Position numbers and translations under genes: made by a program. Below are positions 7,503 to 62,617 of a stretch of 64,000 nucleotides of DNA, piece by piece. Numbering within the stretch: the stretch's first letter is position 1; every line of letters starts with the position of its first letter. Origin of the DNA: an uncultured virus (IMG/VR IMGVR_UViG_2049941000_000254). Taxonomy: Duplodnaviria; Heunggongvirae; Uroviricota; Caudoviricetes. Below the pieces are notes generated by a model. The model ran no database searches, was not told where the DNA came from, and saw only the letters and a program-made list of their open reading frames with translations. The stretch lies in IMG/VR virus record IMGVR_UViG_2049941000_000254; one strand, given 5' to 3'.

Positions 7503-7606
7503 GGGCCTCCCCTAACGGGAATCGGGTGCCACCGTGTCCCGAGTGTACCCTCGAACGGGGGACCTGGGGGACTATCGTGCAGGCGTATTCGACAAAGGAG
7601 ACCAAA

Positions 7607-7882
7607 ATGGTTGATATGAACGCCCCGCTTTCCGCTGAAATTGAAAATGAACTCGCTCTCATTGAAGCGAATGAAGTTCTCGAAGCCACCATTAAATGGA
7701 AGGATACCGAAGAGACCGAAGAGGTCAATATTGCCATGCATGGCGACATGGGCGCAGATGATGACATTTTCTTTTATTGCGAGAGCACGAACGACTTTCG
7801 TGCATTGCTGAAACCTGACAACGGGGAGGACTTTGTAGTAACCGAATTCTTAGGCGGTAAATCCAAATATCCACGCAACTAA
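7607..7882 (+). CDS. small acidic hypothetical protein (DDDIFFYC...EDFVV)
   Basis: Repeat, then AAGGAG, then ATG. Confidence 0.8.
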   Translation: MVDMNAPLSAEIENELALIEANEVLEATIKWKDTEETEEVNIAMHGDMGADDDIFFYCESTNDFRALLKPDNGEDFVVTEFLGGKSKYPRN

Positions 7883-8009
7883 CTAGGGGCGACTTCGGTC
7901 GCCATTCTGTTCCCTTACGGGAACCTCGCCCCACCGTGCCCCACCGGTGCCGGATCTAACCGGGGCTGGGGGAACATCGTGGAGGTGTTCAAACGAAAAG
8001 GAGATTATT

Positions 8010-8477
8010 ATGGCTTTTTTNNNNNNNNNNNNNNNNNNNNNNNNNNNNNNNNNNNNNNNNNNNNNNNNNNNNNNNNNNNNNNNNNNNNNNNNNNNNNNNN
8101 NTCAGCACCTGCATGACCTCGTCATGGCGAAGGCGAAGGAACTTAACCCGAACATGGGCGAAGCGGAACTGAAAAAGGTGGAAGTTCCTCTTCCGAAAAA
8201 GGTGAGCTACAAATATAAGGGGTTCATGCAGCCCGCCCGCAAGATTGTCATAAGCGCCATGGTCGCCACCGACAAGACGGGTGCGGGCATTCCATGTTTC
8301 GTTTGGGATTGCGGGAGCGTGCACGCCGTGACTACGTTCGAGGAACTTCCGAACCATACAATGCACCGTATCATTGACCTGCTGAAGACTTCCGAGACGA
8401 AAGCAGTCAATACCACGGTTGCACTGATGACTGAACTTTCCTCGGTCGAAAAGGTGGCGGTTTACGGGAACGGCTAG
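8010..8477 (+). CDS. hypothetical protein (contains gap)
   Basis: Repeat, SD and ATG; followed by a hairpin terminator. Confidence 0.6.
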   Translation: MAFXXXXXXXXXXXXXXXXXXXXXXXXXXXXQHLHDLVMAKAKELNPNMGEAELKKVEVPLPKKVSYKYKGFMQPARKIVISAMVATDKTGAGIPCFVWDCGSVHAVTTFEELPNHTMHRIIDLLKTSETKAVNTTVALMTELSSVEKVAVYGNG

Positions 8478-8605
8478 ACAAGGGGCTGACGCCCCTTTTT
8501 CGACTTAAAAATTTTTCATCGTGCCCACCGTGTCCCGAGTGTCACCGGAATCGGGTGACCTGGGGGAGTATCGTGGGGGCATTCAACCGAAAGGAGTTTT
8601 TAAAA

Positions 8606-8938
8606 ATGCGTAATCTTCCAATAGTCATCGGCATCGTCGAGGCATGTGTATTTGCCGACCAACTTCCCGTATGCGAGGAATTTGCCGGAGAGGAACATAT
8701 TCAGTGCGTATCGACTGACCGTGCTGCTGTAATCATTTCCCGATTCGATGACAGCGTGCAGTATGAATTTTACACGGCTGACGGGCACAAGGGTTACATC
8801 TACCTTGACGGAGGGGTCACAGTGAATACCGCAAAGCGTCACATGGACATTGCCGCCATACCCGCCGATGACAAGGACGAATATGTCCGAGAAGTGTTCA
8901 ATGCGGTCATGGATGACATCCATTGGCAGCATGACTAG
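8606..8938 (+). CDS. hypothetical protein
   Basis: Repeat, SD and ATG. Confidence 0.8.
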   Translation: MRNLPIVIGIVEACVFADQLPVCEEFAGEEHIQCVSTDRAAVIISRFDDSVQYEFYTADGHKGYIYLDGGVTVNTAKRHMDIAAIPADDKDEYVREVFNAVMDDIHWQHD

Positions 8939-9082
8939 GGCCTGCTGAATGAATGCCATCGGGGACCTATGGTCCCCGATGGTCCTGTTCGTTCCAAATA
9001 GCTGCCCACCGTGTATCAGTTGTCCCACGATCGGTGGGACCTGAGGATACATCGTGGGAATGTTCAACGAAAGGAGTTCACT

Positions 9083-9258
9083 ATGGCAACACAGATTATC
9101 CGTTACTCTAACCGAGCCGAGTTTGAGATTGAAAACTTGGTGGTTGATTTTACCACCGAAGATGTTGAAGTGGTTGACCATGTTCACATTGACGAAACCC
9201 ATATCTATTTCATTGGCGGTTTCCGTAAGGAATTGGCCGCCAAGGACCAGCTGTCCTA
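9083..9258 (+). CDS. hypothetical protein, truncated by gap
   Basis: Repeat, SD and ATG. Confidence 0.6.
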
Positions 9259-9718
9259 NNNNNNNNNNACGATATCTATCACTTTAATAGTTGTGAAGAA
9301 CTGATTAAGACGGGGCACACCACGGCAACATACTACCATCGGTCGGTTGATGTATATGCGGGTCTGCACGCAAAAAAGGTTGTTGATGACATGGGCGAGA
9401 AGAGCCTTGCAAAGTGCTATGCATACATTGCCGAACGCAGAAAGGAACACGCAAAGAACCTTTCCGACATGGAATTGCTCCGAGCCACCGCAAAAAATTC
9501 TTCTGTCACGGAAGATACCGCTGAAAATCTTGTTGAAGACATCAAGTGGTTCCTTGACAACAGAAAGGAAATCAAGGCGAAATGCAAGTAATTCAAGGGG
9601 CGAAAGCCCCTTTTCAATTTTTAATTTTTGAATCCGTGACCACCGTGTATCCGGTGTCCCACGGAAGATGGGACCTGAGGATACATCGTGGGAATGTTCA
9701 TTAAACAAGGAGTTAAAT

Positions 9719-10036
9719 ATGGTGAACTTTGAAAACGGCAACATCATTGACGACGATGGCTTTACAACCACATTCCCGTCTGACTTTTCCATTGCAGATC
9801 GCTTTGGGGTGAACGCCATCAAGGACACATTTAATCGTGCCTTTGGCGAATGGAAGGGGCACTACAAGTATCTGACTCACCTTGTCATCGCCTTGAACCA
9901 CAAGATTCATCAATGGTATGGCAAGAATGACGCCTATGCCAAACTCTACAACGCGTTGTGGGAAAAGGCGGACGCCTACGCATGCGAGAACTTGAAAGGC
10001 GATGAACTGAACTACTTCTACCGCACAACGGACTAG
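9719..10036 (+). CDS. conserved phage/MGE hypothetical protein (TTF.SDFSIADRFG...YFYRTTD)
   Basis: Repeat and SD; sequence pattern recognised as a widespread phage hypothetical family. Confidence 0.85.
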   Translation: MVNFENGNIIDDDGFTTTFPSDFSIADRFGVNAIKDTFNRAFGEWKGHYKYLTHLVIALNHKIHQWYGKNDAYAKLYNALWEKADAYACENLKGDELNYFYRTTD

Positions 10037-10162
10037 GAGAGGGGGCTTACCCCTGCCCCTCCCTTTTCCAACCGGTATCCGGTGCCCACCGTGTACCGTA
10101 TGTCCCACGGAAGATGGGACCTGAGGGTACATCGTGGGAATGTTCAAACAAAGGAGTTCATT

Positions 10163-10741
10163 ATGGCATTAGCAGAAATTTTCGGTCGCATTATCGGGGA
10201 CGAATACACGGGTATCTGTGTGGCGGACTACCTTGCCGAGAACCCCCACGCAAAGGTCAATGACCTCGTAAAGTTCCGCGGTGTCGGAATGGAGAACGCA
10301 AAGACCATCATGATGGTGATGGAAAGCAGTGCCGAATACCTAGCAGGAACCAATGCGGTATCCGTGTCCGACCCCAGCACCATCGTGAACCACCTCTCGT
10401 GGATGCGGTGGGAACAGCAGGAGAATTTGGTGGTGGTGACCCTTGATAATGTGAACCATATTATCGACAAGCACCTAGTGACTAAGGGTCTTGTAAACGA
10501 GGGGCCTTTCCACCCTAGGGAGATACTCCGTCACGCCATCTTGGACAATGCGGTGAGCATAATAGTGGCGCATAACCACCCTAGCGGAAATAGTGAACCT
10601 AGCGAGCAGGATATTGCGGTCACTAGGTTGGTAAATGCCGCTTGTAAAATTATGAAAATGCCTTGTTTAGACCATATTGTGATAAGCCGTAGTGGGTTTA
10701 CTTCTATCCACAGAACGCACCCCGAACTCTTTGAAATTTAA
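10163..10741 (+). CDS. radC: RadC-like JAB/MPN domain protein
   Basis: HhH-like GVGxxxA, QE, HPREI and AHNHPSGNSEPSEQD...LDHIVI motifs. Confidence 0.93.
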   Translation: MALAEIFGRIIGDEYTGICVADYLAENPHAKVNDLVKFRGVGMENAKTIMMVMESSAEYLAGTNAVSVSDPSTIVNHLSWMRWEQQENLVVVTLDNVNHIIDKHLVTKGLVNEGPFHPREILRHAILDNAVSIIVAHNHPSGNSEPSEQDIAVTRLVNAACKIMKMPCLDHIVISRSGFTSIHRTHPELFEI

Positions 10742-10895
10742 TTTTCAACTCCACGAATGAACAACCCTAGGGGCAAAAGCCCCTAGGACACTTTTTAAAA
10801 TTTATTTTCCCCGCATACCACCGTGTATCGCCGGTGCCCCGAGAGATGGCACCCGATGATACATCGTGGGTATGTTCAACAAAAGGAGTTCAGCT

Positions 10896-11387
10896 ATGAG
10901 CAATAAAGACGCAAAGAAAGAAAAAGAAGCCTCTTCGGCCTTTGACTGCCTCGCAGTTACGCAGGTGCAGGTTTACCCCTTCCAGCAAGGCCCTTCTATG
11001 GGACATCTGTTGGGATTGGCGACTGTTGTCCTCAATGACCAGTTCCAAGTCAGGGGCCTCCGTATTATGGACGGTGAGAATGGCCTCTATGTAGGCTATC
11101 CGAATGACCCGTTCTACAAGGGGGAAGACTTCCGCAGTGTCTGTTGCCCGATGACCCGACAGCTGAGGGAACATATCGAGAACTGTGTTCTCGAAAAGTA
11201 TTCGGCATCCGCAGACCCCAAGGAATGGGTTGTTGAGTTCAAGAACGGGGACGAAATGTCCATCAAGATGGAAGTGTCCGAGTTTACGAGGGCGGACGCC
11301 ATCGTCCTTGCGAAGGGCAAGATTGAAGCCAAGTATGGCAAGAAGGTCGCCGATGGCCTTGAATTGGTATCGGCAACCGAAAAGTAA
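10896..11387 (+). CDS. spoVG: SpoVG-family nucleic-acid-binding protein with C-terminal extension
   Basis: VTQVQV...ATVVLNDQFQVRGLRIMDGENGLYVGYP...CCPMTRQLREHIENCVLEKY. Confidence 0.9.
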   Translation: MSNKDAKKEKEASSAFDCLAVTQVQVYPFQQGPSMGHLLGLATVVLNDQFQVRGLRIMDGENGLYVGYPNDPFYKGEDFRSVCCPMTRQLREHIENCVLEKYSASADPKEWVVEFKNGDEMSIKMEVSEFTRADAIVLAKGKIEAKYGKKVADGLELVSATEK

Positions 11388-11611
11388 TCATGGGGGCTTA
11401 CGCCCCCTTTTCACCATCAAACAACATTAACAAGGAGTAGGAAATGCGTCGTTTAGTCGGATATCACGGATAATTTTTTGTTCCACTTTTCTAGTGCTCA
11501 CCCGAGCACTAGATTTTTATTTTTTAAATCGGGTCCACCGTGTATCCTAGGTGCCCTGCCCGATGGCACCTGATGATACATCGTGGGAGCGTTCAATAAA
11601 AGGAGTTCAAT

Positions 11612-12091
11612 ATGCCCAAGTATCACTACAATGTCCATGTCATTTCCAAGGCCGATGATTTCTCCATGTGGGTGGGCGTCACCCTTGACCACAAGCAGCT
11701 TCCGCAGGGCAACTTTTGCCTTGACAACAGCCTGCTCGGCATGACGGCCATCGCCCGTGCCCGTGAACTTTGCCCTGCCCTCAAAGAGTGCTTCTGCGAA
11801 GAATGGAACGGCGGTGACGAAGTGGAAGATGACCCAGTTCAGAAGTTCCTAGGTGCCGACTACAAGAACAAGATGGCTATACTCAAAGCCGCCATCAAGC
11901 CGCTCTTGACAGCCCTTGACCAAACCCACATGCAGTTGGCAGTAGACCATCGGTGCGAGTATTGGCTGACGGCTATCCCGTGGCGTGATGAATACGCAGG
12001 TGGTATGCCCGAGGGCATGGACACCGGCAAACTCCTTGACGCAACTATTGCGTTGGGTGACGCACAGCACCTCGTTGCCGTCATAGATTAA
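11612..12091 (+). CDS. hypothetical protein
   Basis: Repeat, SD and ATG. Confidence 0.8.
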   Translation: MPKYHYNVHVISKADDFSMWVGVTLDHKQLPQGNFCLDNSLLGMTAIARARELCPALKECFCEEWNGGDEVEDDPVQKFLGADYKNKMAILKAAIKPLLTALDQTHMQLAVDHRCEYWLTAIPWRDEYAGGMPEGMDTGKLLDATIALGDAQHLVAVID

Positions 12092-12217
12092 GCATGGGGG
12101 AGGGTTCCCCTCCCATGTTCTCCCTACACTTTCCATAGTCTACCGTGTGTCCGGAGTGCCACGATCGGTGGCACCCGATGACACATCGTGGGAGCGTTCA
12201 ACCAAAAGGAGATGACT

Positions 12218-12670
12218 ATGGAAGATATGACCAAACGCATTATCACCGCTTGCAACCTTGACGCAGGTGCAGTGGACGAATACGGCACCGATGAATACCA
12301 AATTGATGAAAGTATCAAGAACCTGCAAGACCTTGATGATATCTATGCCGACTATGTGAAGGGGTGTGGCGACCCGCAGCTCGTTGCCGACTTCCAGCAG
12401 GAGTTCCTGCATTGGAACATTGGTGAGAAGGTGGTCTTTGAGAGCGGCGACCACGAATGGAACCTCGTCAAGAATTGGGACGATTGGGATTTCCCGAAGG
12501 CTGAACTCACTGACATATTGCGTGGCGATTTGAGCGAAGGCGGTATCGTCTATGTCCACTTCAAGGACGAGGACGGGGAAGACCGATATGGTGAAGTGTC
12601 TGACCTTGAACTTGCAGAGGCTCGCAAGTATTTCGGGGAGCAGGGCACCCCGATGGAAAACCTCGTGTAA
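12218..12670 (+). CDS. acidic hypothetical protein
   Basis: Repeat, SD and ATG. Confidence 0.8.
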   Translation: MEDMTKRIITACNLDAGAVDEYGTDEYQIDESIKNLQDLDDIYADYVKGCGDPQLVADFQQEFLHWNIGEKVVFESGDHEWNLVKNWDDWDFPKAELTDILRGDLSEGGIVYVHFKDEDGEDRYGEVSDLELAEARKYFGEQGTPMENLV

Positions 12671-12795
12671 TGGGTAAGGGGCTATGCCCCATTTCCCTTT
12701 TTATTGTTCCGCCCGTTACCACCGTGTTCCCTATATGTCCCGCCCGCGGCCACCCGATGTCGCATCGTGGGAGCGTTCAACCAAAGGAGTGCTAT

Positions 12796-13041
12796 ATGAG
12801 CCTTATCAACCCGACCGAAAACGCCAACTATATCCTCAACTGCGTCAAGGACGCATTAAAGACCCACGGGAGCGACAATGTGTGCGTGTCCGTAGACGAA
12901 GAAGATGACCAACTCATCGTGGCCTATCACTCGGACAAGAACGGCTATCCCATCAACGAAACGGGCATTTCACCCGATGATGTGAACCTTACGGCTCTCC
13001 GAGATGGGCTGGACGCCCTTGATGTGGGGTATGACTTCTAG
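12796..13041 (+). CDS. small acidic hypothetical protein
   Basis: Repeat, SD and ATG. Confidence 0.8.
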   Translation: MSLINPTENANYILNCVKDALKTHGSDNVCVSVDEEDDQLIVAYHSDKNGYPINETGISPDDVNLTALRDGLDALDVGYDF

Positions 13042-13139
13042 GAAGTGCCGACCTGCTGACCGACCGTGTATCGTGTGTGACCCGACAAGGGTCACCCGAT
13101 GATACATCGTGGGAGTGTTCATTCAACAAGGAGTTCAAT

Positions 13140-13472
13140 ATGGGCAACAACGAAATGATGGCTATGGCAAACGCAAGGGAAATTGAGAAACTCCCCTATG
13201 ATACGCTGAAAGCATTGTTCCCGAATGTCCGCTATATGGTGCAGGGTGAAAGGTGGTACAGAAAGTTCATCGGCCACAGAACCAACGAAATCACGGGCAA
13301 GGAAGAAACATACGCAGCAGGGGAATGGAAAGCCGAGATTAACGGCAGGGAATTTGACACTCCGCAGATGGCTTACGAATATGCCCGAATGAACTACTCA
13401 AAGGGTCATTTCAAGGTCTATGCGTTCGTTCCCGAATTGCATAGGGTTTCCAACCAAATCATCAACGAATAG
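13140..13472 (+). CDS. hypothetical protein
   Basis: Repeat, SD and ATG. Confidence 0.8.
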   Translation: MGNNEMMAMANAREIEKLPYDTLKALFPNVRYMVQGERWYRKFIGHRTNEITGKEETYAAGEWKAEINGREFDTPQMAYEYARMNYSKGHFKVYAFVPELHRVSNQIINE

Positions 13473-13592
13473 GGACTAGGGGGCGACCCCTTTCCTTTAC
13501 CAAGCACCTCAGACTACCGTGTATCACCGGTGACCCCGAACAAAGTCACCTGATGATACATTGTGGGAGCACAAGTTCAAAAGGAGTTCAGT

Positions 13593-13877
13593 ATGATTTA
13601 TCCACCGAATGTTGAAATGCTTGACCTAATCAAGAGCCGTCCGCACTATGAAGTGTCCTTTGACACGGAAGCCGAGGCTAGGGATGAAGAATACCTGCTC
13701 AATGACGGGTGGAGCCCCTTCCTTGATACGGAAGTGGACGGAACCACGCTCTATTTCTCCAATGACCCCTTCTTTAAAGAAGACCACGTCTCCAATGACC
13801 CCTTCTTTAAAGAAGACCACGCAAGAATCGTTGCCGAGAATTGGTGGGACGGCAGGGCGAAACTCGTAAACCCATAG
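13593..13877 (+). CDS. hypothetical protein with 11-aa tandem duplication
   Basis: Repeat and SD; 33-bp exact duplication at 13756-13821. Confidence 0.75.
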   Translation: MIYPPNVEMLDLIKSRPHYEVSFDTEAEARDEEYLLNDGWSPFLDTEVDGTTLYFSNDPFFKEDHVSNDPFFKEDHARIVAENWWDGRAKLVNP

Positions 13878-13897
13878 CCAAACAAGGAGTATGACAA

Positions 13898-14104
13898 ATG
13901 GCAAGACTTGTCCCCGAGAAGAACACCATTTCCGACCTGCTGAATTTCCTGCGCAGTACAGAACGCAGAATAACCGCAGATAACCCCGAGTGTGATACGT
14001 TATGCGATGCACAGGCAGATTTCGTTGATGGATATGCGCTTGGATTCATTGCCGACTTGGTAGAGGGCGCAGTGGAGATGAGCAAGGAAATAGCATGCAA
14101 GTAA
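13898..14104 (+). CDS. small hypothetical protein
   Basis: AAGGAG SD. Confidence 0.7.
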   Translation: MARLVPEKNTISDLLNFLRSTERRITADNPECDTLCDAQADFVDGYALGFIADLVEGAVEMSKEIACK

Positions 14105-14140
14105 ACGATACAAAAATGTCACAAAAAGTGTATGCTTTTT

Positions 14141-14420
14141 GTCAACTACGCACCGCTTAAAGGCGGTGAGCTTGTAAAGCTCCAAAAGGAGGCTTACATA
14201 CGATTGGCCGGTTGACTCACGGCCTGCCTGTCAAGTATGCGTAGGCATACGAGACGGGATGGTTAGACTGCATTTCAGCAATCCGCTATACTCATAATGC
14301 ATCTTGAATCCGTTATGTATGTAGCTACCGAATCCAATCAAACTGTTTCCTCACCGAGCTACGAGCCTCTTTTGGACTTTTAGATGAGTGCCTTTTATTT
14401 CAGCAAGATTTTCAGCGTTT
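14141..14420 (-). mobile_element. IS200/IS605-family right end (omega/reRNA-like) remnant without intact tnpB
   Basis: Minus strand reads CAGGCCGTGAGTCAACCGGCCAAT...CAAGCTCACCGCCTTTAAGCGGTGCGTAGTTGAC, the characteristic subterminal hairpin and terminus; left boundary uncertain. Confidence 0.7.
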
Positions 14421-14563
14421 GGTACAATATAGATTATAATTTTCTATTTGGCAAGTGACAAAATTTTCTAAATTTGATCCCAGTCCCCACCGTGTGTCCG
14501 GTGTTCCATGAACGGGGGAACCTGAGGACACATCGTGGAAGTGTTCAAACAAAGGAGTTCACA

Positions 14564-17039: not shown

Positions 17040-17052
17040 AAAGGGGGTTACT

Positions 17053-17175: not shown

Positions 17176-17257
17176 GTGCACTACCGTGTCCCAAGTGTCC
17201 CGATTATCGGGGGACGTGGTGGAACATCGTGGAAGCACATTCAGCAAGGAGGCCTAC

Positions 17258-18421: not shown

Positions 18422-18564
18422 TCACCCTGCAAGGGGGTGCCAAAGGCGCCCTCTTGTAAATTTTATTTTTCATTTTTGTCCCAGTCCCACCGTGTTCCCG
18501 ATGTGCCCCGATCCGTGGCACCCGGTGGAACATCGTGGGAGCACATTCAACAAAGGAGTTCAAT

Positions 18565-18930
18565 ATGGCTTACAAGACACCGAAATTTACCGCTACGGGA
18601 AAGTTCCACACCGAATGGTGGAGTTTCCGCCACTGCGACCCCCGCAGGGAAATCAGTTTCGTCCACTCCGCGGCTCTCGTTGACCCGCAGGGAAACATCG
18701 TAGCCCGTGCCAACATCGGCTACTGCAACCGCACTTGGGAGTGCCACTCGGGCGATTGCGTCCGTTCCAAGTTGGCCGACCTGCTCGTCCGCAAGTACCC
18801 GACCGTTGCCGCCATGGCCGAGGTCAAGCCCCTCATTGACCAACTGAAGGTCAGTCAGTCCGTGCCGTCCGTATCGTGCGATGCAGGCACCCGTATCGGC
18901 TACTCCCTCTCCATGTGCTGCCCCATGTAA
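18565..18930 (+). CDS. hypothetical protein (YCNRTWE)
   Basis: Repeat, SD and ATG. Confidence 0.8.
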   Translation: MAYKTPKFTATGKFHTEWWSFRHCDPRREISFVHSAALVDPQGNIVARANIGYCNRTWECHSGDCVRSKLADLLVRKYPTVAAMAEVKPLIDQLKVSQSVPSVSCDAGTRIGYSLSMCCPM

Positions 18931-34654: not shown

Positions 34655-34829
34655 ATTTCACTCCGGTGCCCGATCGGCGCGGTGGGGGGCTTAACACCCA
34701 TGACGGTGCCGGAGTGCTGTGTTTTATTTTTTATTTTTTGACTTTTCCCCACCGTGTTCCCCATGTCCCCCGACAAAGGGGACCCGATGGAACATCGTGC
34801 GGATACAATCAACCAAAGGAGACAACACC

Positions 34830-45006: not shown

Positions 45007-45471
45007 ATGATTACGATGAAGGAATATCGCGAGTGCAAGGAAAANNNNNNNNNNNNNNNNNNNNNNNNNNNNNNNNNNNNNNATTTCGAGCGTTCGGTAA
45101 TCGTGGCCGCAATAGTGACCGGGAACCTTGTGAACACTTCAATACCAGATGTGACTGCGGTGGTGCCGGATTCCAATGGCGGAATTTGGCTCCATGAGTA
45201 CGATATCGCGCACCACATTCCCAGAAAGGAACTCCGTTCCATGATGAAGGGAGGTGGCCGTTGGGTCGTTGAGTTCAAGGACATCCACTGCAACCGGGAG
45301 TACCGCATCTTCGATGACAAGAAGTCCGCAAATCGCTACTATGACGAATGCATGGCCCGTACTGCGGAATGCGCCGATGAAGGCGATGACTATGACATCG
45401 AATGGGTAGACATCAACTGGTACGACTGGGCAGATTTCCCGGAAGAAGCCCTGGACTACGCCGACCTGTAG
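45007..45471 (+). CDS. hypothetical protein (gapped)
   Basis: GGAGG SD. Confidence 0.6.
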   Translation: MITMKEYRECKEXXXXXXXXXXXXXXFERSVIVAAIVTGNLVNTSIPDVTAVVPDSNGGIWLHEYDIAHHIPRKELRSMMKGGGRWVVEFKDIHCNREYRIFDDKKSANRYYDECMARTAECADEGDDYDIEWVDINWYDWADFPEEALDYADL

Positions 45472-45548
45472 CCAACCGTGTGCCATGTGTCCCCCGGATA
45501 AGGGGACCCGGTGGCACATCGTAAGGTCATGACAATCAAGGAGATAAC

Positions 45549-45932
45549 ATGGTAGTAAATATAATCACGACTTTGAACAAGAACCAGTTATTCACGAAGA
45601 ATTTCCCGGTCGAGGGTATTTGTGCGCGTGTTGCCGTGTTGAAGGAATGGGCAACCTATTACATCGCAGACGGAGAGGAAGATAACATCAAGGATGTTGT
45701 CGTGTACGGCAACGACCCGGCGGGAACGGTTGTACCCTTCGAGACCCGAAAGGAAACCTGTGAAACTGTGTCCAGTCTAATCGACGCCGCTACGAACAAG
45801 GTAGTAATCAACTGCCTGGACGGAAATGTGCTCGTTGCTAATGTTCGCATGTTCGTCACTAGCAAGACCCCGTATCCCGAGAAGCATTGGGGACCGTGGC
45901 GCGAATGCACCCCGGAGGACTGGAAAGGATAA
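45549..45932 (+). CDS. hypothetical protein
   Basis: Repeat, SD and ATG. Confidence 0.8.
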   Translation: MVVNIITTLNKNQLFTKNFPVEGICARVAVLKEWATYYIADGEEDNIKDVVVYGNDPAGTVVPFETRKETCETVSSLIDAATNKVVINCLDGNVLVANVRMFVTSKTPYPEKHWGPWRECTPEDWKG

Positions 45933-46928: not shown

Positions 46929-47013
46929 CTAACCGTGTTCCCGGCGTGTCCCGATCGAGGGCACCCGGCGTCACATCGTATGGGCAACAATCAACAAGCT
47001 AGGGAGGCTTACC

Positions 47014-47334
47014 ATGGAATTTAAGGACGAAATCATCAAGAGACTTGCCGACGAAGGCATCTTGTTCACGAAGAACAACACGGGAAGCATACTTACCTAC
47101 CGTGCCAACTATGACCATGCGGAAGTCACCGTGTTCGCGGGCCGTTCCTACCAGGGTTTCTTGCCGCATTTCAAGATTATGTGTGATGGCATGGAAACGG
47201 TAAACAAGGCATTTCCCGAGGATGCGGACCTGGAGAAGGTACTGCGCGATGTTGNNNNNNNNNNCACGGGCAACATGGACCAGGCCATCGAGAACTTCCA
47301 GGAAACCATAGGTGGCTACAAGGACCTCAAGTAG
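47014..47334 (+). CDS. hypothetical protein, paralog of 44663-44998
   Basis: Repeat, GGAGG and ATG. Confidence 0.8.
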   Translation: MEFKDEIIKRLADEGILFTKNNTGSILTYRANYDHAEVTVFAGRSYQGFLPHFKIMCDGMETVNKAFPEDADLEKVLRDVXXXXTGNMDQAIENFQETIGGYKDLK

Positions 47335-47411
47335 CCAACCGTGTGTCCGGTGTCCCACGTAACCGGGGACCCGGTGACACATCGTATGGACAACAAACAA
47401 GGAGACACTCA

Positions 47412-47723
47412 ATGAGTACCGATAAAACCTCTCTCAACACCCCGTTAGCCCAGGTAGACTACGGCGTGATTGTTGACTACCCGCATTCCGTGAAGTTTGT
47501 CGCAATCCTTTCCGACGTGGCAGGGGTCGCGTTGGACGAAACTGCGGAAATACTCTTCCCGAAGCCGTCCCATCCGTGCTTCTCGGTAACGGGGAACCAT
47601 ATCGCGACGAGCGACGAGGTGTTCGCGAAACTTGTATCCTGGCTATCGGACAAGAAGCTCATGTACAGCACAAGCGACATGGACATGTACGCGAATAAGA
47701 TACACTACCTGGCCAACGCATAG
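47412..47723 (+). CDS. hypothetical protein
   Basis: Repeat, SD and ATG. Confidence 0.8.
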   Translation: MSTDKTSLNTPLAQVDYGVIVDYPHSVKFVAILSDVAGVALDETAEILFPKPSHPCFSVTGNHIATSDEVFAKLVSWLSDKKLMYSTSDMDMYANKIHYLANA

Positions 47724-47806
47724 GCCAACCGTGTTGGCCGGATGCCGGATGCCACGGCACCCGGCAACACATCGTATGGTCATAGCAAAATTAAAGGCGA
47801 GAACCC

Positions 47807-48208
47807 ATGAAGGAAACGAAACTTGAAACTATCCTCCACATGACCAAGGTGCTGAACAATTTCAAGGAACAGCACCCCGGCATCATAGACATCGGCGTGA
47901 TGGGGGTCGATACATTCTTCGATACCCTGGGCAAGAACCTTCCTTCCTGGGCGAAGAAGAACGCGGAACCCCACAAGGGCGGCTACGCAGGGTACATCCG
48001 TATCAAGTGTTCCGAGACGCTGAGAAAGAAACTGGACTACCCGTCCATCTGGGAGTACCAGTTCAGCGACAAGGCCGAGGATGCAATAATTGGCGCAGTC
48101 CAGGTCATGCACGCCGTATGTACCGCCCGTGGCAACAAGGGCGAGGCAGAGTTCCTGGGTAGCATTTCAAGGGACCTCCGTTCACTTGATTTCAACCCTA
48201 CCGTGTAG
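47807..48208 (+). CDS. hypothetical protein; stop codon inside next repeat
   Basis: Ends ...CCT ACC GTG TAG. Confidence 0.75.
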   Translation: MKETKLETILHMTKVLNNFKEQHPGIIDIGVMGVDTFFDTLGKNLPSWAKKNAEPHKGGYAGYIRIKCSETLRKKLDYPSIWEYQFSDKAEDAIIGAVQVMHAVCTARGNKGEAEFLGSISRDLRSLDFNPTV

Positions 48209-48277
48209 ACGGCACCACGCGAACAAGGGGACCCAGTGGAACATCGTATGGGTATAACAAACAACAAGGAGACAAGC

Positions 48278-48883
48278 ATGACAAAGATTGAAAAAGAATA
48301 CATGGAAAAACAGTTCGCCAAGGCCGTGAAGGCTTGCGAGATGGTCGCCAAGAAGAACGCCTGTGTCAAGGAACTCACAGTCCTCAAAAAGGATAAGTTT
48401 TGGAACACTTGGGCAAAGGTGAACGGTTATTCTAGCCTCGTAAAGAAAACACATCGTTTCGTTGCGGTTCTCCGCTTGAACTTCGACAACGGAGGTGAAC
48501 TGTGCTACTCGGTGAGTAATTCCAAACAGCCGGAAATCGCCGTCCTCGATGTCATCAAGATGGCGATTGTTGGATGGACACCGATACCCGATAGCCAAAC
48601 CATAGGCACCTTTTCCAAGTACGGTTCCGTCGCCAAGAAGAATTTCAAGAAGGTCAAGCGTCTCATGGATGCCTTCGTCAAGGCGATGGAAGCACCCGAG
48701 AAGAAAAAGGTACGCAAGGCATACAACATCAAGTGGGACACTGATGGTGCAACCTTGAAGGAATGTGGCCTCCCTCGTTCCGTGGTCATCCCGGACGATG
48801 TTGCCGATGATGAAGTTGGTGACTGGCTATCAGATACATACGGCTTCTGTCATGACGGCTACATGACGAATTTTGACGAATAA
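48278..48883 (+). CDS. basic hypothetical protein (NIKWDTDG...WLSDTYGFCH C-terminal module)
   Basis: Repeat and SD; C-terminal module recognised from phage/MGE hypotheticals. Confidence 0.8.
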   Translation: MTKIEKEYMEKQFAKAVKACEMVAKKNACVKELTVLKKDKFWNTWAKVNGYSSLVKKTHRFVAVLRLNFDNGGELCYSVSNSKQPEIAVLDVIKMAIVGWTPIPDSQTIGTFSKYGSVAKKNFKKVKRLMDAFVKAMEAPEKKKVRKAYNIKWDTDGATLKECGLPRSVVIPDDVADDEVGDWLSDTYGFCHDGYMTNFDE

Positions 48884-48891
48884 ACACATTT

Positions 48892-49014
48892 GGATAGGTG
48901 GCCCCGCGAGATAATCGCAGAATAAGGCGCGGAGCAGGCCATACCCTGGGAGAAAGCCGAACTGCGGGCAAGTATCACGAAACCTGGAAAGCCGAAGGGG
49001 TCCAGGGCCTATCC
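48892..49014 (+). ncRNA. candidate multi-stem structured RNA
   Basis: GGATAGG/CCTATCC closing stem enclosing TGGCC/GGCCA and CCCTGG/CCAGGG stems. Confidence 0.45.
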
Positions 49015-49361
49015 TCCACCTTTTAACCTACCGTGCGCCAGGTGTTCCCCGATCGGGGGGACCCGGTGCTTCATCGTATGGGCATAACTCAAACAAAGGA
49101 GACAACCAATGACCTTTACCAAACTTCTCGCAATTCTCAACAAGAAATGCCCCATGTATGAGGTCGGGCATGAGACCGGGGCCAAGGTGCTTTTCGGGAA
49201 TGGAGGCGGCACCATAGATTGGTGCGNNNNNNNNNNCACTTTGGTTTCACCTTCGGGAGCGACGATGCCGAATGGCTCGATGAAACAGGTCACACACCCG
49301 TATGGACCAAAATCCAGGACGAACGTTTCCTTGAACAACTCTTAAAGAAGGAGGCTTAACA

Positions 49362-54122: not shown

Positions 54123-54205
54123 ATCCAACCGTGTTCCCCCGGTGCCCCGATCGGTGGCACCCGATGGAACATCGTATGGGCATCACTCAAACAAAGGAGA
54201 CAACC

Positions 54206-56016: not shown

Positions 56017-56296
56017 ATGGCAAATACCGTTATTCGTAGGGAACTCTCGCGAACCGACCGCGAACAATTCTATGTGATGGTCAGGGCATATTTCCCCAAT
56101 GCCGTTATCATCCCGGAAACCGAATACGATAGCATGATGTGGCTGTTAGGGTGTGACCGCATGGACAAGAAAGCCGCGATGATTATGAGCACCAGTAAGG
56201 GCGTGTACCTCTATGTTGGTATTGAGAATGTAGTAACGGGCAGGTTTCATCGTCTTTGCAAGACGAAAGACCCCATACGTTTTATGTCCAAATTGA
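56017..56296 (+). CDS. hypothetical protein, 3' end in gap
   Basis: Repeat, SD and ATG. Confidence 0.7.
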
Positions 56297-56441
56297 NNNN
56301 NNNNNNNNNNNNNNNNNNNNNNNNNNNNNNNNNNNNNNNNNNNNNNNNNNNNNNNNNNNNNNNNNNNNNNNNNNNNNNNNNNNNNNNNNNNNNNNNNNNN
56401 NNNNNNNNNNNNNNNTTTCGAACTTAAAGTAAGGAGACACC

Positions 56442-57275: not shown

Positions 57276-58088
57276 ATGAAACATTCAAGGACAATTATCA
57301 CATTCCCGTACGACATGGCATGCGACATCAAGTACCTTCCTACCAAGCGTCACAAGAAGCCTCATACTATCCGTGGTAGCCACCGCGTATGCGGCGAGGT
57401 CCCGGTCGTCGAGGAAAAGGACTTCCCGGTCGCATTCAAGGTAAAGAAGTATCATACCGTCTGTCCGTCCGCAAAGACGCATAGCGACCTTTCGAAAGGT
57501 CTCCCTACCAAATCCGGGTACATGCCCATCCCGGTACGCGCATATAAGGGAAAGTTCTACCGCCCGTACCAGTATGGCTTCGGTGCGGTCAAGACTACCT
57601 GTGGTGTCAAAAGCGTGGAGGGTCTCCGATATGAAATCGAACGCATGTTCCGCGAATATGGCATCGAAATGACCCCGTCGGAAACTGGCAATTTCCTTGC
57701 CGATGCCATCATGCTCGAAGAAGATATCCGTTCACTCTCCGCGGCCCAGAAGGCTGACGGCAAGAGGTTGCGGGAATTTTGCTCGTCGTTCGTGAGTTTC
57801 AAGGGCAAGCTCTGGACAGAATGCGGGGAACCGTTCTATCACTACATGGTGTTCGGGATGGGTAACGGCAACGGCGATACTGCATTCTTCGTGGACTTCG
57901 AGAACGAGTGGCTCGACTGGCACCGCGGGGAAATGGTGTACAACGCCTTCCACCGCGAACAGTGCCTGGATGCAGCCCGTAAGCGTGCAACCATGCGCCA
58001 CGACAGTATGGAATTGCTAAACAACCCGAAAGAAGATATCAAAATTCTTCTCCCGGAGCTTGTGAAAATCAAGGAAAATATTTTTTAA
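57276..58088 (+). CDS. hypothetical protein (YLPTKRH...FPVAF...GEPxY...FG)
   Basis: AAGGAG SD; 270 aa. Confidence 0.8.
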   Translation: MKHSRTIITFPYDMACDIKYLPTKRHKKPHTIRGSHRVCGEVPVVEEKDFPVAFKVKKYHTVCPSAKTHSDLSKGLPTKSGYMPIPVRAYKGKFYRPYQYGFGAVKTTCGVKSVEGLRYEIERMFREYGIEMTPSETGNFLADAIMLEEDIRSLSAAQKADGKRLREFCSSFVSFKGKLWTECGEPFYHYMVFGMGNGNGDTAFFVDFENEWLDWHRGEMVYNAFHREQCLDAARKRATMRHDSMELLNNPKEDIKILLPELVKIKENIF

Positions 58089-58326
58089 TTCGTGATTTAG
58101 TAAATCGTGATTTAGTAAATTTGTCTCCTACCGTGTCCCGGCAGTCCCCCGGAACGGGGGACCCGGAGACATATCGTCTAGGCATCTTAATCAAAAGGAG
58201 ATAACATNNNNNNNNNNGACGCATCGTACACGCATGAAACCCGGTCGGGTGCCCCGTGGCAAATTGGTCAAATCCAATCCCACACATCGCCCTCGGCACC
58301 CGGCCACATCTTTAAGGAGACAAGTC

Positions 58327-59173: not shown

Positions 59174-59248
59174 TGCCCCGTAGCTCAATGGAATTAGAGT
59201 GTCTCCGTCCGAAGGAGAAGGTTGCGCGTTCGAGTCGCGTCGGGGCAA
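59174..59248 (+). tRNA. tRNA-Arg (anticodon CCG)
   Basis: TGCCCCG/CGGGGCA acceptor, TAGCTCAATGGAATTAGAGT D arm, TCTCC-GTCCGAA-GGAGA anticodon arm, GCGCG-TTCGAGT-CGCGT T arm; no encoded CCA. Confidence 0.9.
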
Positions 59249-59501
59249 CTAATGGGACATGGGCCTACAGATGCATTGTTTGGCACACAATGACCATGAA
59301 CATGGAAATTGCAACAAACACCTAAACATCCATCAACTCAAACATTTGCATCCAGGCCTGTGTCCTACTATATTGCTAACAACCCATGAAAAATACGTGA
59401 TGCTTGTTGCTTATACCTAGCGAGTGATTATGGAACAGGTTGCCGTTTGAATACCTGTTTGCTATATTTGGAATATAAACTGGTGTATAAGGAGATATAT
59501 T

Positions 59502-60326
59502 ATGAGTGACTATGAACAGAAAGTACAGACTGCTATGGTAGAGGCAGCGGCAAATGCCGCCGATGCGCTCGGTATCATGGAGGCAAACGAAGCCAAGAAG
59601 ATGCTCCATGGCATCGGGCCAGGTAAGTCGAGATTTCCCTCATATGCCATTTTGACTGCCGAAAACCCAGATTGCAAGCAGCTTTCTCCAATGGAAAATA
59701 ACAAGCGCATGGAGGAACTTACCTCTACGCTATCTTCCGGCAAGTATCCTTTCCGTAAGGTTAAAGGTTTCTATGGTGTCACTGACGGCGCACACCCCGA
59801 ACATTCCGTGGTAATCGGTGGCATCACGCTTGACACGGCGAAGAACATGTCCAAATTCTGGGGACAGCAGTCGTTCATCTTCATCACCCGTGATGCAGGT
59901 AACAAGGTCTCCTATGAAATGTGGGCCAAGGGTCCCGCAGGTGAATATGAGAAAGTGGACGAGAAGGACAAGATCAATTTCGTGCCTTCCGACCAGGACT
60001 TCTACTCCCGCGCAGGTGACTTCAAGGGAAGTATCCCGTTCGAGCACTTCACGCCGGGTACATCCCCAATGGTTGGCGATGTCGAACATGACGGCAGCGC
60101 ACTCGGCCAGGCCTATGACACCGCGTTGAAAATGGATACTGATGTCAACGATGCAATCAACTATCTCGACTCCTTCCTGGAAAGTGTAGTAGTTGGCAAG
60201 GGACAGTACGGAAAACTGTTCGAAGGTCTCAATGGCGGTCCTAAGATTGCCCGGTACTATTGGCAGTGCCGTTGCGAAGGCATGACAGGGGCCAAGTATG
60301 GAGAAGATGGTGTCCTACTGGGATAA
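59502..60326 (+). CDS. DUF3293-like phage protein
   Basis: AILTAENP...ENNKR...L...GFYG...EHS...QQSFIF pattern. Confidence 0.7.
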   Translation: MSDYEQKVQTAMVEAAANAADALGIMEANEAKKMLHGIGPGKSRFPSYAILTAENPDCKQLSPMENNKRMEELTSTLSSGKYPFRKVKGFYGVTDGAHPEHSVVIGGITLDTAKNMSKFWGQQSFIFITRDAGNKVSYEMWAKGPAGEYEKVDEKDKINFVPSDQDFYSRAGDFKGSIPFEHFTPGTSPMVGDVEHDGSALGQAYDTALKMDTDVNDAINYLDSFLESVVVGKGQYGKLFEGLNGGPKIARYYWQCRCEGMTGAKYGEDGVLLG

Positions 60327-60532
60327 TTTCCCGGTTTAACGAGAATTGTACCTAACAATTATCCAACTAAATTGCAAGAAACCAAAGGCGCGGTGGAAGT
60401 TCCCTGCGTCTTTTCGTATGACTACCGTGTTCCACATGTCCCACGATCCCGGGGACCTGGTGGAACATCGTATGGGCACATCAATCAAGAGGAACAACAC
60501 CTCGCAAACCAACAATTAACAAGGAGAAAACC

Positions 60533-61018
60533 ATGAAACAGATAATGTTCTTTATGTTTGCGCTGATTTTATGCTTATGCGCATGCGAAGAAGTCGCCCC
60601 GTCCTACGTGGACGACGTACAAGGCAGCTCCATGTACGACGTACCAGGTAGCTCCGTGTACGGCGCACAAGGCCGTTCATGCTCAGCCGAGCAGCCAACC
60701 AGTTCGTCATCGTATCAGAGTACCCGTCCGAATCCCGGTCATGTATTCAGGGAAGCTGATGAACCGGACCCATTCGAGGAAACAATCCGGCTGCAGTGCC
60801 GGAAAGTTGTAAAGGAGGTCACCGAAAAACTAGGCGGAATTATCACTTATGACAATGGACAATATTACATGATAATGCACGATAACATCGACATCAAGTC
60901 CGACAAATACAAGCAGATGTGTAATGATGTTCGTGAGTATCTTACTAATGTACTTGGCTTTGTAGATAAAGTGGCATCATTTTGTATGGGCCACTCGAAC
61001 ATGTTTTGCTCGGAATAG
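60533..61018 (+). CDS. putative lipoprotein
   Basis: Repeat and SD; ...LILCLCAC lipobox. Confidence 0.75.
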   Translation: MKQIMFFMFALILCLCACEEVAPSYVDDVQGSSMYDVPGSSVYGAQGRSCSAEQPTSSSSYQSTRPNPGHVFREADEPDPFEETIRLQCRKVVKEVTEKLGGIITYDNGQYYMIMHDNIDIKSDKYKQMCNDVREYLTNVLGFVDKVASFCMGHSNMFCSE

Positions 61019-61965
61019 CACTGTCGGCTCATATTCGGAATTCTCCATTCAATGCGGGAATCCGTGAACTACCGTGTTCCCCCACCANNNNNNNNNNNNN
61101 NNNNNNNNNNNNNNNNNNNNNNNNNNNNNNNNNNNNNNNNNNNNNNNNNNNNNNNNNNNNNNNNNNNNNNNNNNNNNNNNNNNNNNNNNNNNNNNNNNNN
61201 NNNNNNNNNNNNNNNNNNNNNNNNNNNNNNNNNNNNNNNNNNNNNNNNNNNNNNNNNNNNNNNNNNNNNNNNNNNNNNNNNNNNNNNNNNNNNNNNNNNN
61301 NNNNNNNNNNNNNNNNNNNNNNNNNNNNNNNNNNNNNNNNNNNNNNNNNNNNNNNNNNNNNNNNNNNNNNNNNNNNNNNNNNNNNNNNNNNNNNNNNNNN
61401 NNNNNNNNNNNNNNNNNNNNNNNNNNNNNNNNNNNNNNNNNNNNNNNNNNNNNNNNNNNNNNNNNNNNNNNNNNNNNNNNNNNNNNNNNNNNNNNNNNNN
61501 NNNNNNNNNNNNNNNNNNNNNNNNNNNNNNNNNNNNNNNNNNNNNNNNNNNNNNNNNNNNNNNNNNNNNNNNNNNNNNNNNNNNNNNNNNNNNNNNNNNN
61601 NNNNNNNNNNNNNNNNNNNNNNNNNNNNNNNNNNNNNNNNNNNNNNNNNNNNNNNNNNNNNNNNNNNNNNNNNNNNNNNNNNNNNNNNNNNNNNNNNNNN
61701 NNNNNNNNNNNNNNNNNNNNNNNNNNNNNNNNNNNNNNNNNNNNNNNNNNNNNNNNNNNNNNNNNNNNNNNNNNNNNNNNNNNNNNNNNNNNNNNNNNNN
61801 NNNNNNNNNNNNNNNNNNNNNNNNNNTCTTCTGCATAGCGCAGATGCCGTGTCACCGTAATCTTATGGATGATGAAGGCAATCCGAAAACCGAAGCGGTC
61901 ACCTACGAGTCTCTTGACGAAATCGACCAGGAAACAATGAAGCAATTCGAAAAGATGGTAAAGTA

Positions 61966-62226
61966 ATGATTGAATACTTCTACTTCAATTTCGCCTACTC
62001 GCTGAACGGAAAGAAGAACCCGTATGCAAGGTACCATGACATGTTCTGCCGTGTCACGGTACCTAGTAGCCCGGATGCAGCAAAGGTTGCCCTTGAAAAG
62101 TTCTCCACCAGGTTCAAGCGAAACGAATGGGGCTTCCAGTACACCCAGGCCGAGTTCGATACTTTCCCGTCTAAACCGTGGTGGAAGGATACCGAAAGGG
62201 TCGTAGACTTCGATGACCTCCGTTAA
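61966..62226 (+). CDS. hypothetical protein
   Basis: TAATG overlap with the upstream frame. Confidence 0.65.
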   Translation: MIEYFYFNFAYSLNGKKNPYARYHDMFCRVTVPSSPDAAKVALEKFSTRFKRNEWGFQYTQAEFDTFPSKPWWKDTERVVDFDDLR

Positions 62227-62617
62227 AGGATATCACAGAGTATGAGGAGCCCTATTATCACTAAGAACACAATAGCCACCAGGAACATTTCGTTTGCACA
62301 CGGACCGTAGATGGCCGCATAGGGGTTTCCAGCATACTGTGCCACGTAAAGTGTCGTTGCTGTGCTTAATGATTGCATAATCTTACCTACCCATAATGAT
62401 TGCATAATCTTACCTACCCATAATCTAGCTTATTCGTTCCACTTTTTCAAAGCTATTTGTCGGGTGATGACACATATCACAGCTCGCATTCGGTGTGATT
62501 TCTGTCATCCATTCGGCGTGATTTTGCCTACCGTGTTCCACCTTCCCCAGGAAAACGGGGACCTGAGGGACCATCGTATGGGCAACGAAACAAAAACAAC
62601 TCAACAAGGAGACACTT

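Follow-up and report, generated by a model that had tools for sequence, protein, structure and literature searches.

What does a hairpin of fixed length do when it stands some seventy times, always in the same orientation, in front of small and mostly unrelated genes of a phage? The question is raised by a stretch of 64,000 nucleotides from an uncultured virus of the Caudoviricetes (IMG/VR record IMGVR_UViG_2049941000_000254), the whole of which is called the window below. An earlier reading of the bare letters (the sequence-only reading) had noticed the repeat, a 48-nt core followed by a leader with a Shine-Dalgarno (SD) motif, and had offered three roles for it: a recombination site of an integron-like gene-capture system, a promoter acting as single-stranded DNA (ssDNA) or cruciform, or an RNA leader or processing signal. 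The present analysis favours the last of these. We put the probability at roughly 0.55 that the element is a transcribed leader or intercistronic RNA hairpin recognized by a trans-acting factor, and the evidence that carries this reading is the structure of the element, its placement, its genomic context and its pattern of turnover.

Copies of the element were located with (i) a pattern search, (ii) a profile and (iii) a covariance model. The pattern search of the window, allowing up to 3 mismatches, gave 57 matches, all on the + strand and between 7531 and 62577, with 0 matches expected from 100 dinucleotide-preserving shuffles of the window. The profile, built from these 57 matches, yielded 71 + strand copies at E<1e-3, and the covariance model 70 + strand copies at E<=1e-5; the 11 minus-strand matches of the model are weak echoes at the same palindromic places as + strand copies. 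An additional 2–3 copies, near 42456 and 50381, are incomplete where masked N runs interrupt them, and the 40 masked runs of the window, 3034 N in total, may conceal further ones. Examples of N runs are 713–1055, 2150–2912, 40106–40378 and 61088–61826, and the dips in GC content seen in 2-kb bins around 2–4 kb, 40–42 kb and 60–62 kb are artefacts of the masking, not islands. The array begins just past a divergent intergenic region at about 7.3 kb, and neither the profile nor the covariance model found a copy on either strand of positions 1–7520. Copies are spaced by a median of 704 nt (range 321–2294). The core is 48 nt long in 57 of the 71 copies; a few copies carry 1-nt indels and give 65-nt model matches.

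7523..62585, + strand: array of the 48-nt hairpin element, 71 copies with their leaders, all in the same orientation (profile, confirmed by the covariance model)
Core starts from 7531 to 20262, + strand (profile): 7531, 7933, 8527, 9008, 9642, 10088, 10820, 11537, 12142, 12721, 13063, 13516, 14489, 14936, 15580, 15968, 16557, 17183, 17783, 18489, 19456, 20262
Core starts from 21101 to 38189, + strand (profile): 21101, 21763, 22281, 23149, 23683, 24111, 24788, 25431, 26201, 27009, 27470, 28175, 29203, 30366, 31030, 31351, 32054, 33175, 34017, 34751, 35781, 36405, 37158, 37665, 38189
Core starts from 39478 to 62530, + strand (profile): 39478, 40462, 40946, 41984, 43105, 43745, 45475, 46358, 46932, 47338, 47728, 48200, 49030, 50182, 51309, 52627, 53496, 54128, 55014, 55940, 56936, 58130, 60424, 62530

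The core is part of a cassette of about 85–90 nt that consists of flanking pairs, the 48-nt hairpin, a C/A-rich unstructured spacer, a consensus SD and an ATG. An SD-like motif was present at +56 to +80 in 61 of the 66 usable copies, and in 55 of the 66 the called gene start lay at +72 to +82 from the start of the core, most commonly at 75–77; genes were called with an SD-guided open reading frame (ORF) caller made for this analysis, which biases the choice of the start and not the existence of the ORF. Between the end of the hairpin and the SD there are about 15 nt, and the ATG follows the hairpin at 27–32 nt. The module with the best-scoring model match (78.2 bits) is complete:

18489..18567, + strand: complete module, with the core at 18489–18536, a C/A-rich spacer, the SD AAGGAG at 18553–18558 and the ATG at 18565

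The 71 units are small: 43 hold one gene, 23 two, 3 three and 2 none. The 98 array genes have a median length of 128 amino acids (aa) and include only 3 paralogous pairs. The sequence-only reading had described about 74 same-orientation copies, a 48-nt core, no copy in the minus-strand region at 1–7.2 kb, an SD and an ATG at a near-fixed distance from the core, and units of a few, mostly unrelated ORFs. All of this holds, the number of copies being 70–71 on the + strand plus the 2–3 that are cut by N runs.

The exact pattern recurs in five IMG/VR contigs. Four of these are divergent relatives of the window, with 65–94% nucleotide identity in patches:

G001: 253 kb (estimated 99% complete)
G002: 253 kb
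G003: 203 kb
G004: 42-kb fragment

The covariance model found 44 matches in G001 (27.0–82.1 kb), 8 in G002, where the block lies at a broken end, and 32 in G003, in one block and one orientation per record; G004 has 49 matches, one of them an opposite-strand echo. The placement of SD and ATG is the same in the relatives as in the window. The pattern match in the fifth contig (G005, 51.6 kb), in which the model gives 0 matches, was treated as chance, and so were the isolated single pattern matches in Ruegeria, in an alphaproteobacterial metagenome-assembled genome (MAG) and in a Methanomassiliicoccaceae MAG. The densest array is found on an 11,180-nt contig binned with a Clostridiales MAG, with at least 20 exact-pattern copies about 300–800 nt apart. 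Exact matches are also present in metagenome contigs of 158–473 kb. Similar DNA was found neither among the INPHARED phages nor among the PLSDB plasmids. Overall, the element occurs about 45–70 times per genome, in four IMG/VR contigs, one Clostridiales-MAG contig and at least 240 stretches of metagenomes.

The structure was analysed on a gapless alignment of 147 distinct fixed-length copies, 57 from the window and 90 from the four related contigs. The fold consists of 3 flanking pairs, a lower stem of 10 positions (ACCGUGUnnC/GnnACAUCGU, with one mismatch), an internal loop of 4 nt on one side and 5 nt on the other, an upper stem of 5–6 pairs (GUnCC/GGnAC) and an apical loop of 7–9 nt. With the flanks the lower stem has about 13 pairs, and the whole hairpin about 19 pairs, or about two helical turns. 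On the 147 copies 84.6% of the paired cells are complementary, as compared to 78.2% after shuffling of the columns (0 of 500 shuffles reached the observed value) and 33–52% when the partners were slid. Compensatory changes are found at three pairs of the core: positions 8/41 (UA 42, GC 35, AU 25, CG 4), 9/40 (CG 95, UA 26) and 17/31 (CG 86, GC 31). A blind mutual-information scan over 123 columns placed these pairs at ranks 1, 2 and 4, and RNAalifold recovered both helices independently. Single copies adopt the proposed fold with z-scores of −2.6 to −4.1. In an independent set of 150 model matches from 100 metagenome loci, in which the outer invariant positions are partly fixed by the search pattern and the covarying positions are free of it, 88.2% of the cells were paired and pair 17/31 was GC in 69 and CG in 57.

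Conservation extends beyond the helices. At least 90% conservation was found in 23 alignment columns, a C3·C46 mismatch is present in 146 of the 147 copies and a G4·U45 pair in 116 of the 147. The internal loop conforms to CYGRK on its 3' strand and is free on its 5' strand. The dominant form of the 3' strand differs by genome, being CTGGG in 19 of 24 G003 copies; in the window CCGGT is the commonest form, next to CTGAG and CCGAT. Variants of the element are clustered along the window, as the following representatives illustrate:

9008..9055, + strand: representative core of the 9–16 kb subfamily, outer stem TGTATC/GATACA, 3' internal loop CTGAG, zero pattern mismatches; the minimum free energy (MFE) fold is the proposed structure, at −31 kcal/mol (z = −4.12)
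34751..34798, + strand: representative core of the 18–36 kb subfamily, outer stem TGTTCC/GGAACA, MFE −26.9 kcal/mol (z = −3.59)
54128..54175, + strand: representative core of the 43–62 kb subfamily, whose leader begins ATGGGCAT

A search of the whole window against Rfam 15 at the gathering threshold returned only a tRNA and no family for the element. At relaxed thresholds the region 33100–36600, which holds five copies, gave chance matches only, at least 14 bits under gathering. The motif is therefore new with respect to Rfam, as the sequence-only reading had supposed.

The surroundings of the hairpin on the upstream side are of two kinds. A stop codon lies at most 12 nt upstream of the core in 61 of the 205 elements of the window and the four relatives, most often at 3–4 nt, and TAG accounts for 34 of these 61 core-abutting stops vs 31% of the stops elsewhere. 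With so short a gap, a promoter or terminator of its own could not be accommodated ahead of such a core.

45469..45551, + strand: element abutting a stop codon, with TAG at 45469–45471, a gap of 3 nt, the core at 45475–45522, the SD at 45538–45543 and the ATG at 45549

Many other copies have a terminator-like hairpin 45–55 nt upstream. A terminator scan of the window gave 42 terminator-like sites vs 23 expected, about 15 of them before elements in the 7–27 kb region. A stricter test assigned an upstream terminator to 18 of 67 window elements, which all lie in the interval 11.5–37.2 kb; in the 43–62 kb half of the array elements are present and there are almost no terminators. In the relatives a terminator together with a T-rich tract was found before 14 of 47 elements of G001, 9 of 47 of G004, 3 of 32 of G003 and 1 of 8 of G002. 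The T-rich tract of the terminator-preceded copies is about 20–25 nt long. AT-rich upstream regions were seen at 22 of 203 elements, and in 9 of these 22 the tract ends with TTTG at −14 to −11. The T-tract occurs only together with terminators, and the element is common to both contexts.

18428..18458, + strand: intrinsic-terminator-like GC hairpin, followed by a T-rich tract that ends with TTTG 11–14 nt before the core at 18489

The terminator-like hairpins (17736–17753, 19410–19427, 23105–23122 and others) form a repeat family of their own, AGTGCCC-N4-GGGCACT followed by a T-run, and the module of terminator plus T-tract is thus reiterated as well.

How transcripts reach the genes behind these terminators bears directly on a role of the element as promoter. 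Such a promoter could be a hairpin extruded from DNA as in phage N4, or a site for a holoenzyme with a phage sigma factor, with transcripts starting in the leader 10–25 nt before the SD. Transcription must restart between the upstream terminators and the ATG, yet no sigma-70-type promoter is seen there. In the T4-type promoter-early stem-loop (PeSL) cassettes, the −35 and −10 boxes are located between the AT-rich tract and the SD (PMC2839356). The relatives encode sigma-70-family factors (sigma-70 region 2 is present in G001, G002 and G003), and since both strands of the element fold equally well a cruciform is conceivable. On the other hand, searches of G001–G003 with PF00940, PF00562 and PF00623 found no T7-type, N4-like or multisubunit RNA polymerase domain, the PF00940 search having had no positive control; no RNA polymerase PHROG was found among 119 large ORFs of G001, a scan that a very divergent enzyme could escape. 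Judged from the column frequencies, the conserved blocks are not spaced like the −35 and −10 boxes of any sigma-70-type promoter. Compensatory changes are unexpected for a duplex promoter, and the invariant C·C mismatch and the 4/5 internal loop would be useless to a cruciform. Finally, the TTTG-ending T-tract is restricted to the terminator-preceded copies (the 22 of 203), which suggests that those units are transcribed from a promoter ahead of the hairpin and that the others are reached by read-through. When the conserved blocks and the T-tract were read as −35/−10, extracytoplasmic function (ECF)-like, sigma-54-like or Bacteroidota-type (TAnnTTTG) promoters, none of these fitted consistently. 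The ssDNA or cruciform promoter of the sequence-only reading is conceivable at lower weight, given that no phage RNA polymerase domain was found and the fold energies favour neither strand; we regard a promoter function as rather unlikely.

The alternation of terminator-like hairpins and elements between 11 and 37 kb, with no recognizable promoters between them, could also be read as nut- or put-like antitermination. In that case the hairpin, as nascent RNA, would load a factor on the polymerase, or modify it, so that it reads through terminators, and the repeats would recharge the complex; the start of the array just after the divergent intergenic region agrees with this. However, in the nut and put systems described so far one or two sites serve an operon, as compared to 70 here, the elements at 43–62 kb are almost without terminators, and nothing in the model requires a fixed distance to the SD and the ATG. 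Antitermination, which would also be a role at the RNA level, we consider improbable.

Comparison of the window with its relatives shows how the genes behind the elements change. Each relative shares only about 30 of the approximately 98 array genes of the window. The shared genes are largely collinear as judged from reciprocal best hits, with 30/31 for window and G004, 27/28 for window and G003, and 22/22 for G004 and G003; between the window and G001, the most distant relative, 21 of 29 are collinear and the order is locally rearranged. In the alignments of window and G004, 11 of 38 high-scoring segment pairs (HSPs) start within −15 to +5 of a core (1.0 expected by chance), and 14 of 38 end at +45 to +90, that is in the leader or at the ATG (2.2 by chance). 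This 6- to 11-fold enrichment at the repeats, which is weaker in other pairs, is partly expected from the conservation of the repeat itself. At the level of sequence, the comparison shows differences that come in whole genes or units. An example is the following:

46989..49096, + strand: unit-level replacement, in which four units replace about 325 nt of G004, with breakpoints in the leaders at +57 and +66 after the core start

The gene at 56017–56427 has no element of its own and is inserted between a leader and the gene that directly follows that leader in G003. Orthologues that have an element in only one of the two genomes number 5 and 3 for window and G003, 7 and 1 for window and G001, and 0 and 4 for window and G004.

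These data bear on the integron-like recombination site, or a capture system related to HUH or REP-associated tyrosine transposases (RAYT), acting on the folded single strand. A hairpin conserved in structure on one strand bounds small unrelated ORFs, turnover is heavy, some reordering is seen with respect to G001, and homology breaks at the repeats. The sequence and length of the element are fixed, unlike those of attC, and the shared genes are mostly collinear. The breakpoints scatter from the start of the core through the leader to the ATG and do not fall at one fixed base of the hairpin, the pattern for which the sequence-only reading had proposed to look, and single genes without an element of their own are inserted or deleted as well (56017–56427). 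A search with PF00589 (Phage_integrase) found no tyrosine recombinase in G001–G004, the control being positive in 14 of 14 genomes, and no integrase was found among 104 window ORFs scanned against Pfam. Of the enzymes for which the sequence-only reading had proposed to look, sigma factors are present in G001–G003, RNA polymerase domains and a tyrosine recombinase were not found in the records named, and a Y1 HUH transposase (Y1_Tnp) occurs in G001 alone, at 186.5 kb, inside an insertion sequence (IS) beside a TnpB gene and far from the array; G002–G004, from which it is absent, also carry the element. A recombination site in this sense is very improbable. What stands of the proposed cassette-like behaviour is the heavy gain and loss of genes bounded by the repeats; capture of the integron type is not supported. 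Turnover of this kind is the expected outcome of homologous recombination between repeats, as in PeSLs.

The elements themselves resemble their neighbours in the same genome more than the elements at orthologous places. The orthologous element was closer than the same-genome neighbours in only 1 of 13 cases for window and G003 and 2 of 14 for window and G001. Together with the genome-specific form of the internal loop, this may reflect either local homogenisation or co-evolution with a factor. The second possibility leads to a translational operator, at which an RNA-binding protein would switch translation of the whole block, in the manner of T4 RegA or of coat-protein control. The strongly conserved stem sequence, the invariant non-canonical pairs, the conserved 3' strand of the internal loop, the genome-specific loop variant and the end of the hairpin just ahead of the SD all agree with such a site, and the array contains a conserved homologue of SpoVG, whose family consists of nucleic-acid-binding proteins. 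Its 64% identical counterpart lies in the array of G001; as a candidate trans-factor it is speculative. No protein has been tied to the element, Atlas look-ups of two conserved array proteins as possible trans-factors having given only unnamed clusters below 0.9; the likeness of neighbours is equally explained by local duplication or gene conversion; and folding predicts no effect of the hairpin on the accessibility of the ribosome-binding site (RBS). Control of translation in this manner, the option at the RNA level that comes next after the processing discussed below, we accordingly hold to be doubtful.

We return to the RNA hairpin recognized by a trans-acting factor. A role at the RNA level is favoured because the element is always in the sense orientation to the genes, because hairpin, spacer and SD form one module of about 85 nt, because this module is present in promoter-less intercistronic gaps, 3–4 nt after stop codons, and because there are compensatory changes as well as conserved non-canonical features, the latter being usual in RNA that is recognized and not expected to be kept by a duplex promoter or a cruciform. 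Of the roles listed by the sequence-only reading, the leader or processing signal fits best. As to the mechanism, we tentatively propose endonucleolytic processing or stabilisation of the type known from phages T7 and SP82. Processing is preferred since the shape and the position of the element are those of substrates of RNase III type: the hairpin is irregular, spans about two helical turns, has a 4/5 internal loop conserved on its 3' side and stands in an intercistronic or leader position before each cistron. The sequence of events that we infer would be as follows. The hairpin would be transcribed in sense and recognized post-transcriptionally by the trans-acting factor; a single cut would give every gene its own mRNA, with a short leader that is the same throughout, and the RNA upstream of the cut would keep a hairpin that protects it. 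Over evolutionary time the approximately 70 almost identical repeats also provide points of crossover, with genes gained, lost and replaced as units, as with PeSLs.

A number of observations weigh against an RNA hairpin of this kind. Sigma-70-like promoter sites are not enriched in the window (17 vs 17.3 expected) and none was found before a + strand element, and the promoter needed after the at least 18 terminator-like sites could be in the element itself. The mean MFE of the 147 copies is equal on both strands (−29.29 kcal/mol for + and −29.21 kcal/mol for −), and for one copy that was tested the minus strand gives the better fold. If the conserved G·U pair is set aside, C·A and A·C cells (110) are more numerous than G·U cells (66), and a sense RNA thus gets no support from wobble pairs. 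A phage RNase III was not found in the relatives, and RNase III substrates generically do not require such strict conservation of sequence. Prediction also gave no insulation of the RBS: over 158 units the probability that the region from SD to AUG is unpaired was 0.559 with the native hairpin, 0.553 with a shuffled one and 0.562 after its deletion. A passive RBS insulator, having no predicted effect on accessibility, was rejected as a sufficient explanation of the hairpin.

A further-reaching form of the RNA-level reading is a private post-transcriptional code, in which a phage protein that co-evolves with the loop variant would process, stabilize or switch some 70–100 accessory genes. We think this unlikely. 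If it were correct, a gene recombined behind the hairpin would join the regulon at once, and the array would be a plug-and-play platform for expression and capture that is widespread in gut jumbo phages.

The genes carried by the array have few known relatives. Among 93 array ORFs of at least 60 aa, 3 had a Pfam match (RadC-like JAB, SpoVG and DUF3293) and 6 a PHROG match, and the hyperplastic 55-kb block, in which the element stands before most of the genes, is therefore an ORFan-rich accessory region. The features that could be named are the following:

10163..10741, + strand: RadC-like JAB domain protein (PF04002, E = 2.6e-35; phrog_10276)
10896..11387, + strand: SpoVG homologue, nucleic-acid-binding protein family (PF04026, E = 2.6e-16)
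59174..59249, + strand: tRNA-Arg(CCG), within the ORFan array and located between units
59502..60326, + strand: cargo gene with a DUF3293 domain (PF11697, E = 4.5e-11)

Several traces of local duplication were seen. The genes at 18940–19272 and 19531–20229 are partial duplicates of one gene in adjacent units (85% amino-acid identity), one of them interrupted by N runs. About 45 nt upstream of two neighbouring elements (40417–40461 and 40901–40945) are near-identical, which indicates recent local duplication of a unit. Upstream of the element at 58130, the region 58085–58129 holds a word of about 16 nt twice in tandem, and the orthologous place in G004 (about 25800–25863 of the reverse complement) holds two copies of a different word of about 21 nt; these words may be an operator or iteron. 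The left flank of the array (1–7286) is a block of minus-strand genes without family matches, except for a 51-aa HATPase_c_3 fragment beside a long masked run, and two proteins of this block are 90–93% identical in amino acids to proteins of G002.

The replicon is an uncultured myovirus-type jumbo phage of the bovine gut. The PHROG scan of the 119 large ORFs of G001 gave a baseplate wedge, a tail tube, a head protease and a 2728-aa tail-fibre-like protein, together with two sigma factors, thymidylate synthase, PhoH, a Thg1-like enzyme, an RNA 2'-phosphotransferase and many TnpB-type transposases. DNA of the window is present, in small shares, in 19 DNA and 2 RNA sequencing runs of public archives that carry the label bovine gut metagenome; some of the DNA runs contain about a third of the sequence words sampled. 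In G001 the array continues into genes of the same strand that encode thymidylate synthase, a sigma factor and an FtsK-like ATPase, and by analogy with T4 and SPO1 the array probably consists of early genes. An SD was found at 39 of 112 large G001 ORFs outside the array vs 11 of 112 control positions. This usage of SD motifs and the Clostridiales label of the MAG hint at a host among the Bacillota, the binning of phage contigs being weak evidence and possibly an artefact.

G001 also carries a load of IS genes that is unusual for a phage, with at least 7 TnpB/IS605-family transposase genes, one IS607-type serine recombinase and one IS200-type Y1 transposase (IS genes are found, for example, at 18446–19738, 108906–110192, 128435–129667, 145306–146697, 182349–183620 and 184976–186202). 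An RNA 2'-phosphotransferase (Tpt1/KptA-like, 127838–128395) and a Thg1-like tRNA-His guanylyltransferase (180980–181960) suggest a capacity for repair of RNA or tRNA.

The element is a candidate new RNA family, and its copies mark gene starts and arrays of accessory genes in jumbo phages that have not been cultured. As a tractable model, it could show in what way large sets of small genes for host takeover or anti-defence are expressed and exchanged by giant phages. If a dedicated factor reads it, the array would be an unusually large viral post-transcriptional regulon and a source of standardised expression parts.

How the element relates to known systems can be judged feature by feature. 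Like attC sites, the copies are folded, strand-specific sites that separate small, unrelated and co-oriented ORFs. The attC sites are defined by structure, have little sequence conservation and a variable length, stand 3' of the gene and need an adjacent IntI; the element has a fixed sequence and length and goes with the start codon that follows it, no integrase was found, and the order of the genes is retained. The hairpin promoters of N4, a virulent phage, are likewise conserved small hairpins co-oriented with early genes. They have stems of 5–7 bp and loops of 3 nt on the template strand, number three per genome and are used by a giant virion RNA polymerase, whereas the element has about 19 pairs with an internal loop and about 70 copies, and no such polymerase is detectable.

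Closer in form are the RNase III signals of T7 and SP82. T7 has about ten RNase III sites in all, and the internal loop of its R1.1 site is also one of 4 nt/5 nt. In both cases irregular intercistronic hairpins of about two turns, interrupted by an internal loop, recur in one phage with related sequence and stand tens of nt before start codons. The polycistronic early mRNA of T7 is cut at five RNase III signals (PMC3867540), and internal loops restrict RNase III to cleavage of a single strand, which leaves a stabilising 3' hairpin (PMC3867540, PMC1540722). RNase III sites in the early mRNA of the Bacillus phage SP82 are cited in PMC4838370. The differences are in number, with five early sites in T7 (PMC3867540) vs about 70 in the window, in the much stricter conservation seen here, and in sequence, which shows no similarity.

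The start-associated sequences (SAS and ESAS) of the Cluster K mycobacteriophages resemble the element in architecture only. Their published consensus comprises a 13-bp SAS motif and 17-bp inverted repeats. As described in PMC3203893, they are repeats in one orientation at many gene starts, with an inverted repeat and spacer upstream of an SD motif and a consensus that differs between related phages; the ESAS is found at about half of the SAS-preceded genes, and for its arms the authors found little support for an mRNA hairpin. Here, in contrast, compensatory changes are strong and the copies number about 70; sequence and host phylum are different as well.

The nearest counterparts are the PeSL cassettes of the T4-type phages (PMC2839356; PMC4122927). 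PeSLs are short composite cassettes repeated before ORFans in hyperplastic regions of large myoviruses, with turnover bounded by the cassettes, and their parts are a GC stem-loop terminator, an AT-rich tract and an SD; in the array the terminator belongs to some copies only. The PeSL is built on a recognizable sigma-70 early promoter and its stem-loop is the terminator, whereas no sigma-70 promoter is recognizable here and an extra, covarying hairpin of 48 nt fills the slot between AT tract and SD. In addition, about 30% of the copies lack both terminator and AT tract and abut a stop codon, and the two show no sequence similarity. Within the literature on jumbo and rumen phages that was searched, subscription journals being outside its scope, no description of such an element was found, only the PeSL papers and unrelated work. 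Overall, the novelty claimed by the sequence-only reading holds for the motif, which matched no Rfam family, and not for the kind of system: the motif is new, and repeated cassettes that head ORFans in plastic regions are known in the form of PeSLs.

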